A stretch of DNA of 64,000 nt, taken from the NCBI RefSeq assembly GCF_051903065.1, contig NZ_CP178438.1; one strand, 5' to 3'. Numbering within the stretch: the stretch's first letter is position 1; every line of letters begins with the position of its first letter. Made by a program: the position numbers. This DNA comes from Escherichia coli (GTDB lineage: Bacteria; Pseudomonadota; Gammaproteobacteria; Enterobacterales; Enterobacteriaceae). Below are positions 48,501 through 51,500 of the stretch, piece after piece.

Positions 48501-51500
48501 TAGCCTGCTGATCCACGCGGCTGCCGGTATCATCCTGATCCACGCCATCCTGATCCATATGTATATGGCATTCTGGGTGAAAGGATCGATTAAAGGGATG
48601 ATCGAAGGGAAGGTGAGCCGTCGCTGGGCGAAGAAACACCATCCGCGCTGGTATCGTGAAATCGAGAAGGCAGAAGCGAAAAAAGAGAGTGAAGAAGGGA
48701 TATAATCTCTTTTGAACTTTAAGCTGAAAATGGCGCTGTAAAAGGCGCCATTTTCATATTGTAGACAACGTGGGCTTTGTTCATCCCGGATGCGTCGTGA
48801 ATGCCTTATCCGGCATGAAAACCCTTCAAATACAATAGATTGCAGTGAACGTGTAGGCCTGATAAGCGTAGCGCATCAGGCAATGTTGCGTTTGTCATCA
48901 GTTTCAAATGGCGCTGTAAAAGGCGCCATTTTTTATTGCGCAACCAGACGGCGTAATCGCGACACATCCACCGTTTTTTCAGCCTCTGCCAGACTCCAGG
49001 CGTTTTGCAGATTCAGCCACATTTGCGGCGAACTGCCGATCACCACGGAAAGTTTAATTGCCATTTCTGGCGTCAAAGCTGCTTTTCTGGTCAGCAATCG
49101 GCTTGCCGTTGAGGGAGCAATTTCCATTGCTCTGGCAAACTCGCGCAGGCTGACATTAAGTTCGTCCAGTGATTCCTGAATAATGTCCCCCGGGCGGGGA
49201 TGATTGGCCATTTTCATTAGTGTCTTTACTCTCAGTAGTGTTCCTTCACTGGGAACACTATCATTATTGTTCCTTCCTACGCAACAATAATCCATTTAGC
49301 CATTTCATGTTGGAGAGTGTGCGATGCTGCGACACCAGGACTGGCAGTCGCAGCAAAGGCCTCTTAGCGGCGGAAATCAATCACCATACGGCCACGGATT
49401 TTGCCTTCTTCCATCTCGGTAAAGATGGTGTTGATGTCCGCTAACGGACGCAGGGCGACTTTCGGCACCACTTTGCCTTCGGCCGCAAACTGGAAGGCTT
49501 CAGTTAGATCCTGGCGCGTGCCGACCGGCGAACCGACCACTTCAATGCCATCCAGCACAAGACGTGGGATATCCAGGCTCATAGACTCCGGCGGCAGACC
49601 GACAGCCACAACACGACCACCTGCACGGACTGCATCAACTGCCGAGTTAAACGCAGCTTTAGCTACTGCTGTTACCACCGCAGCGTGAGCGCCACCGGTT
49701 TTCTCCTGCACAATTTTGGCGGCGTCTTCGGTGCGTGAGTTAATCGCTAAATCTGCACCCATTTCGGTTGCCAGTTTTAACTGCTCATCATTGACATCAA
49801 TGGCGATCACTTTCGCGTTAAAGACATTCTTCGCGTATTGCAGGGCGAGGTTACCCAGACCGCCAAGACCGTAGATAGCAATCCACTGCCCGGGACGAAT
49901 TTTTGACAGCTTAACGGCTTTGTAGGTGGTGACCCCCGCACAGGTAATGCTGCTGGCCGCCGCCGAGTCCAGACCATCTGGCACTTTTACCGCGTAATCG
50001 GCGACCACGATGCACTCTTCCGCCATCCCGCCATCAACGCTGTATCCGGCATTTTTAACTGAACGGCAGAGCGTTTCGTTACCACTGTTACAGTATTCGC
50101 AATGACCGCATCCTTCGTAGAACCACGCCACGCTGGCACGATCGCCTGGTTTTAATGAGGTGACACCTGGACCCACTTCTGCCACCACACCAATCCCTTC
50201 ATGGCCCAGAATTACGCCGGTTTTGTCACCAAAATCGCCATTCTTAACATGAAGATCGGTATGACATACACCACAACACTCCATTTTCAGCAGGGCTTCG
50301 CCATGTTTCAGTGAGCGCAGTGTTTTATCCGTAACGTCAACATGATGAGCCTTCATAGTTCCTCCTTTTCGGATGATGTTCTGCATAGCAGGTGAGGCAA
50401 ATGAGATTTATTCGCCACTACCCAGTATGGATGAGATCTGAAAAAGGGAGAGGGAAATTGCCCGGTAGCCTTCACTACCGGGCGCAGGCTTAGATGGAGG
50501 TACGGCGGTAGTCGCGGTATTCGGCTTGCCAGAAATTATCGTCAATGGCCTGTTGCAGGGCTTCGGCAGAGGTTTTCACCGCCACGCCTTGCTGCTGCGC
50601 CATTTTGCCAACCGCAAACGCAATTGCGCGGGAGACTTTCTGAATATCTTTCAGTTCCGGCAGTACCATACCTTCGCCGTTCAGCACCAATGGTGAATAC
50701 TGCGCCAGCGTTTCACTTGCCGACATCAGCATCTCATCGGTGATACGTGACGCGCCGGAAGCAATAACCCCCAGGCCGATGCCCGGGAAAATAAAGGCGT
50801 TGTTACACTGGGCGATAGGGTAGATTTTATCTTTCCATACCACTGGATTAAACGGGCTGCCAGTGGCGACCAGCGCGTTACCTTCAGTCCAGGCGATAAT
50901 GTCCTGCGGTGTGGCTTCCACGCGTGACGTCGGGTTAGACAGCGGCATCACGATCGGACGCGGACAGTGTTTATGCATCTCACGGATGATCTCTTCCGTA
51001 AACAGCCCGGTCTGTCCTGAGACGCCAATCAGAATATCTGGTTTTACATTGCGCACCACATCCAGCAGTGACAGCACATCGCTGTCGGTATCCCAGTCAC
51101 TGAGGTTTTCGCGCTTCTGCACCAGTTTGGTCTGGAAAGGCAGCAGGTTCGGCATCTTGTCGGTCAGCAGGCCAAAGCGATCGACCATAAAGACTTTCTG
51201 CCGTGCTGCTTCCTCGCTTAATCCTTCACGCTGGGTCTGGGCGATGATCATTTCGGCAATGCCGCATCCCGCTGAACCTGCGCCAAGGAAGACGATTTTT
51301 TTCTCGCTTAACTGACCACCTGCCGCGCGGCTTGCTGCGATCAGTGTGCCGACTGTTACCGCCGCAGTGCCCTGAATGTCATCGTTAAAGGAACAAATTT
51401 CATTGCGATAGCGGTTAAGTAACGGCATCGCATTTTTTTGTGCGAAGTCTTCAAACTGCAACAGCACGTCCGGCCAGCGTTGTTTCACAGCCTGGATAAA

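Follow-up and report, generated by a model that had tools for sequence, protein, structure and literature searches.

The yddM gene of Escherichia coli encodes a protein of the antitoxin kind, and at the locus studied here it stands with no toxin gene beside it and with a palindrome upstream of its start. The question raised by this locus is where the partner toxin belongs and what the remaining antitoxin would do. We analysed a 64-kb stretch of E. coli DNA (the window, to which all positions refer), in which the segment at 48.9-49.4 kb is the fdnI/yddM/adhP/maeA region. Our analysis shows that yddM is the HigA antitoxin/repressor half of a known HigB-HigA pair, the toxin gene of which has been deleted in this lineage. 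This much is already known: yddM is annotated as HigA in RefSeq, the protein structure has been solved, and the toxin loss of K-12 is in print, K-12 and HS having been reported in 2020 to encode only the antitoxin at this locus (PMC7232551). The additions made here are incremental. They comprise the allele frequencies, the derived nature of the toxin-less state with its independent losses, a two-operator model like that of Rts1, and natural operator variants.

YddM belongs to the HigA family

The gene lies at 48933-49217 on the minus strand, and its product has 94 residues starting with MKMANHP. A first-pass annotation of this DNA had described the product as an antitoxin-type protein with an XRE helix-turn-helix, and the profile searches agree with it. 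The score of YddM is 92.4 bits with TIGR02607 (HigA family addiction module antitoxin; COG3093 VapI), the curated cut-off of which is 47.7, and 34 bits with HTH_3. YddM is thus a HigA-family antitoxin with an XRE helix-turn-helix repressor domain. It is 98% identical (92 of 94 residues) to PDB entries 2ICP and 2ICT, named 'antitoxin HigA', from E. coli CFT073, and by this identity to a solved protein it is a compact, fully folded N-terminal helix-turn-helix dimer. The 2ICP protein has been described as the HigA-like YddM of CFT073 (PMC3968373; PMC6987408). The CFT073 protein comes from the same gene at the same locus, and the operators are conserved there as well. The identity to HigA of plasmid Rts1 is 41%. 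A 120-aa open reading frame starting at 49295 was considered as an alternative yddM and rejected; its extension runs through the operators, and the solved protein has 94 residues.

The window allele differs from the common protein WP_000781370.1 by G44R and T93A. The common protein is identical in K-12, O157:H7, B1 and B2 strains (including NU14) and E. albertii. Gly44 (codon 44, 49086-49088) is shared with Rts1 HigA and is located just past the recognition helix, and an arginine adjoining this helix could change DNA binding by YddM. The window allele represents a rare lineage, because only 3 of more than 5,400 records match the 801-nt region at 99% identity or higher.

The gap between yddM and adhP holds no toxin gene

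The adhP stop codon is found at 49364-49366, and the gap between the two genes (49218-49363) is exactly 146 nt. The first-pass annotation had given the same size as an approximation, had called it too short for a toxin gene and had seen no toxin partner in it; all three statements stand. A 38-aa open reading frame with a TTG start (49264-49380) and a 28-aa one are present in the gap. None of its small open reading frames, the 38-aa one included, has a match in Pfam or any other family. Furthermore, a tblastn search with the cognate HigB toxin against the whole 64-kb window returns nothing above noise (best E-value 0.22). yddM is therefore an intact but orphan (solitary) antitoxin gene with no adjoining toxin gene in the window. 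A PF05015 gene immediately upstream of higA, the arrangement that defines a higBA operon, is absent here, but 1,329 E. coli genomes and other genera have it at the orthologous locus. Since the toxin gene is absent here yet present at orthologous loci, the window holds a remnant and not a complete system.

The two open reading frames of the gap leave room for the proposal that a small unannotated toxin is still hidden there. The 38-aa one, which is without a family match, overlaps both the 3' end of adhP and the operators and shows no sequence conservation in toxin-bearing strains. With no HigB-like sequence left in the window either, we rejected a hidden gap toxin.

The partner toxin HigB in other genomes

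Some E. coli strains have an annotated 'RelE/ParE family toxin' between yddM and adhP. In NU14 this is a 92-aa open reading frame, the stop codon of which overlaps the yddM ATG by one base (TGATG). Its product matches PF05015 (HigB-like toxin) with 63 bits and shares 56.5% identity with HigB of the IncT/Rts1-type plasmid, the family prototype. The 92-aa toxin gene lies upstream of the antitoxin gene in CFT073, NU14 and NRG857c and is deleted in the window; the HigB partner of B2 strains (WP_000605675.1) is known in AIEC NRG857c as parE-2/higA-2 (TA20).

In a cross-species survey with one genome per species across bacteria, relatives of yddM were found in 41 loci. A HigB gene directly precedes the yddM orthologue in E. 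albertii and other Escherichia and in about 13 Citrobacter species. The same pairing is found in Cedecea, Buttiauxella, Enterobacter, Pluralibacter, Erwinia and Chimaeribacter, and in distant relatives that are 30-35% identical. The pair adjoins fdnI in Escherichia, Citrobacter, Enterobacter and Pluralibacter. Because many pairs in related genera adjoin fdnI, the higB-higA pair is the ancestral arrangement here, from which the toxin-less one derives. The fact that this pairing with a PF05015 gene has been conserved among orthologous loci also suggests that YddM would bind and neutralise its cognate HigB. The first-pass annotation was thus right that the protein is of the HigA type, with neither a toxin nor room for one, but the partner is not primarily to be sought elsewhere, as it suggested: the place of the toxin is this exact position. 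Within the 64-kb window and the plasmids that were searched, there is no support for YddM acting on a toxin encoded elsewhere.

The population sample consisted of 5,426 complete E. coli genomes. The higB sequence is present in 1,329 of them (24.5%), and the toxin-less junction of the window type is present in 4,011 (74%), including K-12 and most O157:H7. About 500-545 of the 1,329 carry a 1-nt deletion that shifts the frame of higB; they belong to ST131 and its relatives, and the gene is annotated as a pseudogene. In E. coli R3 (L002, 1840-2117) and O25b:H4-ST131 the frameshift is a single-G deletion at CGCCACC-ACTCGC. With some 505-545 genomes frameshifted, no more than about 15% of the complete E. 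coli genomes keep a potentially intact higB here.

Other disrupted alleles are observed. A separate deletion allele found in two genomes (e.g. O157:H7 TR01) keeps the last 47 nt of higB and is without O2. In TR01 (L004, 1190-1250) the deletion is an independent one that spares O1 and removes O2 with most of higB, and the upstream spacer is a mosaic of toxin-bearing and toxin-less haplotypes. Citrobacter sp. FP75 has an internal higB deletion between ATGGCGA repeats, and higB is disrupted in C. portucalensis A60. The main deletion, the ST131-type frameshift, TR01, Citrobacter sp. FP75 and C. portucalensis are, on comparison of these alleles, evidence that the toxin would have been lost independently several times.

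HigB homologues are carried by 99 E. coli plasmid records, with an identity of at most 56.5%. To be noted, one plasmid record of 385 kb (NZ_CP141085.1, match H86) holds a copy 100% identical to the chromosomal higB, which may be a piece of chromosome carried by a very large plasmid or an artefact of assembly.

The higB deletion and its junction

Alignment with toxin-bearing alleles reveals that about 270 nt are missing from the window, essentially the whole higB open reading frame, with the upstream control region and the yddM start kept. The scar lies in the leader between O2 and the yddM ATG (49218-49235, minus strand). Two alignments, A1 and A2, place the junction differently and leave it ambiguous within about 49218-49239; divergence of the 22-nt leader prevents an exact placement. 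A1 puts it at an ATGAA direct repeat, which corresponds to a 272-nt deletion, and A2 a few codons ahead of the higB stop. Related toxin-less alleles retain CACTGATG, the overlap of higB stop and higA start. We therefore downgraded the clean ATGAA-repeat junction, since A2 and the retained CACTGATG fit a pre-stop junction equally well. By either placement the deletion would have removed higB and fused the operon promoter and its two operators almost directly to higA. An upstream sequence, ATGAAATGGCTAAATGG, resembles the yddM start (repeats D5 and D6); a duplication was considered for it, and it is better regarded as a diverged homologue of the NU14 spacer.

Between fdnI and yddM, a 27-nt terminator-like hairpin, AAATGGCGCTGTAAAAGGCGCCATTTT, occurs twice (48728-48754 and 48906-48932, at a distance of 178 nt), with one copy on either side of a REP-like palindromic insert. 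Many strains (e.g. 2014C-3655) have a fdnI-yddM spacer of only 50 nt, about 178 nt shorter, so that the insert is polymorphic and flanked by a duplication. In adhP (about 50347/50348, codons 4-9) the window is without 18 nt, GCAGTTGTTACGAAGGAT (AVVTKD), that are found in NU14. The reading frame is kept by this deletion, which falls between AAGG(C/A)T repeats close to the N-terminus.

Two tandem operator-like repeats are conserved upstream of yddM

The inverted repeat I12, here named O2, is found at 49236-49260 and consists of TAGTGTTCC (49236-49244) and GGAACACTA (49252-49260). Its 9-bp arms are 100% complementary and separated by a 7-nt spacer. This is the perfect 9-bp palindrome reported by the first-pass annotation; 18 nt lie between it and the yddM ATG, the earlier figure of 19 being a counting difference. 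The conserved core GTTCC-N7-GGAAC (49240-49256) is found unchanged in 24 of 25 orthologous loci of other strains and genera, with the promoters anchored on the palindrome. At a fixed offset, the core precedes yddM by 306-309 nt where the toxin gene is complete and by 39 nt in toxin-less alleles. Across the orthologous loci the O2 arms are invariant and the spacer varies. In the 64-kb window the exact core occurs once; with one mismatch allowed there are three sites, two of them in the gap and 29 nt apart.

The companion of O2 in the gap, O1 (49269-49285), reads GTTGC-N7-GGAAC on the minus strand and comprises inverted repeats I10 and I16. It is an imperfect copy of O2 located exactly 29 nt upstream, which accounts for the 29-nt direct repeat D2. 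The O1 parts TGTTGCG and GGAACA are conserved across genera, and in Chimaeribacter O1 is a perfect GTTCC-N7-GGAAC. Judged from the sequences, the palindrome exceeds chance. Because the toxin belonged here and was deleted, we regard the palindrome as a candidate operator, conserved and inherited from the former higBA operon as one of two tandem sites.

A palindrome of this kind could also be an RNA hairpin or terminator instead of a protein site, and a terminator scan does flag 49235-49261 on the plus strand. Here, however, the plus strand is antisense to yddM and lies downstream of the two fdnI terminator copies. Furthermore, the arms are invariant across genera with no compensatory changes, which is a signature of protein recognition and points away from RNA pairing. 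The rival reading as a whole, a toxin still hidden in the gap or a palindrome working as RNA, is extremely improbable.

Several natural variants of the operators are observed. The O2 of K-12 is GGAACGCTA, with 8 of 9 positions matching, versus a perfect 9 of 9 in the window. In E. coli G5 from Panama (L054; window 49272-49282) an 11-nt segment between the 9-bp arms ATTATTGTT and AACAATAAT of O1 is inverted relative to all other alleles, so that the perfect and imperfect O1 half-sites are swapped; this looks like a small hairpin-mediated inversion. In E. coli EC571 (L053; window 49228-49256) a 29-nt deletion lies between the GGAAC of O1 and that of O2. It leaves one hybrid operator and removes the -10-like hexamer, and from its sequence this strain should have lost the yddM promoter.

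Putative promoter and possible transcription from adhP

A -10-like hexamer, GATAGT, is found between O1 and O2 at 49257-49262 on the minus strand. Two conserved N7-spaced inverted repeats thus flank a -10-like hexamer, and can be regarded as candidate HigA operators over a putative promoter. The position of the hexamer is conserved across genera with the pattern xxTAxT, with GATAAT, GGTAAT, TATACT and TATGAT as examples. A -35-like TTGCGT (49279-49284) is located in O1, 16 nt from the -10-like hexamer, and matches 3 of 6 consensus positions. A strict sigma-70 consensus scan of the region found no promoter. In K-12, genomic SELEX assigned yddM an RpoD holoenzyme site at adhP-yddM (map 33.42); the entry is given as 'Internal Promoter' with no hexamers (PMC3946193). 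With the consensus scan negative, the promoter call rests on the cross-genus conservation and this RpoD SELEX entry.

Transcription may also come from adhP. Just past the adhP stop a hairpin is found (49325-49355, minus strand; TGCTGCGAC / GTCGCAGCA, repeat I13). It is followed by GTCGCAGCCTGTTTTGCG in NU14 and E. albertii versus GTCGCAGCATCGCACAC in the window, and the T-tract is missing in the toxin-less haplotype. In toxin-bearing strains (L001, 2430-2445) TGTTTTG follows the hairpin, and a deletion of about 46 nt has removed the T-tract (window 49313-49324). With this tract lost, read-through from adhP into yddM is possible. The adhP terminator may thus be weakened and yddM co-transcribed with adhP, as far as the sequence indicates.

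Comparison with known HigB-HigA systems

The HigB-HigA pair of Rts1, a Proteus vulgaris plasmid, is the prototype of the host-inhibition-of-growth module. It shares with the yddM system the toxin-first order, a PF05015 toxin and a TIGR02607 antitoxin. The Rts1 hig promoter reads GTATTGC-N7-GTAATAT, then TATAGT, then GTATTAC-N7-GTAATAC, which is the layout of the window: in both, two tandem N7-spaced inverted repeats flank the -10 hexamer, TATAGT in Rts1 and GATAGT in the window. In Rts1, O1 and O2 overlap the -35 and -10 elements and HigA alone binds each of them at about 0.13 uM (PMC12266136). Repression by Rts1 HigA alone is also no weaker than that by the HigB-HigA complex (PMC12266136). 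The half-sites differ, being GTATTAC/GTAATAC in Rts1 and GTTCC/GGAAC in the window. Moreover, the Rts1 module is plasmid-borne and has its toxin, whereas the window locus is chromosomal and the toxin is absent.

HigA of Pseudomonas aeruginosa and GraA of P. putida have the same HigA fold and family as YddM, with E-values of 1e-8 to 1e-12. Both autoregulate through palindromes, and P. aeruginosa HigA regulates other genes too, e.g. mvfR. These two proteins have contiguous operator palindromes, TTAAC GTTAA, to which two dimers bind cooperatively; both spacing and sequence differ from those of the window. The K-12 HigB-HigA pair YgjN-YgjM has only the name and the toxin-first order in common with the yddM system. 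Its HigA, YgjM, is a 138-aa protein with a C-terminal helix-turn-helix and belongs to an unrelated subfamily, and YgjN-YgjM is therefore not a candidate partner by homology.

Taken together, yddM is very probably the higA of an Rts1-type higB-higA operon from which higB has been deleted and in which the promoter and O1/O2 remain, and autorepression is the most likely action of YddM. A higBA operon at the fdnI-adhP position would have been the ancestral state of Escherichia and its relatives. A YddM dimer is expected to bind each of the 17-bp inverted repeats, O2 and O1. When bound it would occlude the promoter and repress its own transcription. The former higBA promoter would now drive yddM alone, and with no toxin to neutralise, YddM would act as a solitary autoregulated repressor. 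Operator conservation and the analogy with Rts1 HigA make this autorepression the most likely outcome, and we infer DNA binding, autorepression and the promoter assignment from these same comparisons.

Why the antitoxin persists

A solitary autoregulated repressor could have been kept for a role that does not need the toxin, either as a domesticated transcription factor with outside targets or for anti-addiction against HigB from plasmids or phages. We regard such a role as possible but rather unlikely. Every listed record has the antitoxin gene annotated at the locus, which amounts to at least 98% of genomes, though 74% are without the toxin, and K-12, O157:H7, NU14 and E. albertii share one and the same protein. 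In addition, several independent toxin losses have left higA and its operators in place. Sampled toxin-less alleles have 10 synonymous-only versus 4 replacement codons. Set against the 2:29 of toxin-bearing alleles, however, this replacement-to-synonymous ratio of 4:10 suggests relaxed constraint, in a sample that is small and biased. EC571, which has lost the -10 and half of O2, also speaks against such a role. In a ChIP-exo study (Gao 2018) YddM was among the transcription factors regarded as validated, and new regulatory connections came from CRISPRi; in other literature YddM is an uncharacterised 'orphan TF'. For anti-addiction, the 99 plasmid records with HigB homologues would supply the targets, but at no more than 56.5% identity cross-neutralisation is doubtful.

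It is unlikely, in turn, that yddM is a harmless neutral relic heading to loss after a recent deletion, with the palindrome conserved by inertia. Rare replacement variants do occur in toxin-less alleles (G44R, G10E, E80A and T93A), promoter-damaging variants exist (EC571, and O157:H7 TR01 without O2), and the published record offers no clear phenotype beyond one uncomplemented screen hit. Yet the leader and upstream spacer of the toxin-less haplotype are strongly diverged from those of the toxin-bearing one, and in the midst of this divergence the O1/O2 half-sites and the -10-like hexamer are intact, which implies selective conservation. The coding sequence is also annotated without a pseudogene flag among the records listed. 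The codon counts of toxin-less yddM alleles are compatible with a continued but somewhat relaxed constraint, as far as this small, biased sample can tell.

Thus the preferred reading remains that of an autoregulated HigA left behind by the higB deletion. A more far-reaching proposal is that the repeated independent loss of higB, with higA and operators kept, reflects selection for a toxin-independent role of YddM, as a domesticated stress-linked regulator or as immunity to incoming HigB-type modules; we consider it tentative and rather improbable. If it is true, the antitoxin of three quarters of E. coli would be a repurposed one instead of a dead remnant. Should YddM work independently of a toxin, the locus would be a convenient model of antitoxin domestication.
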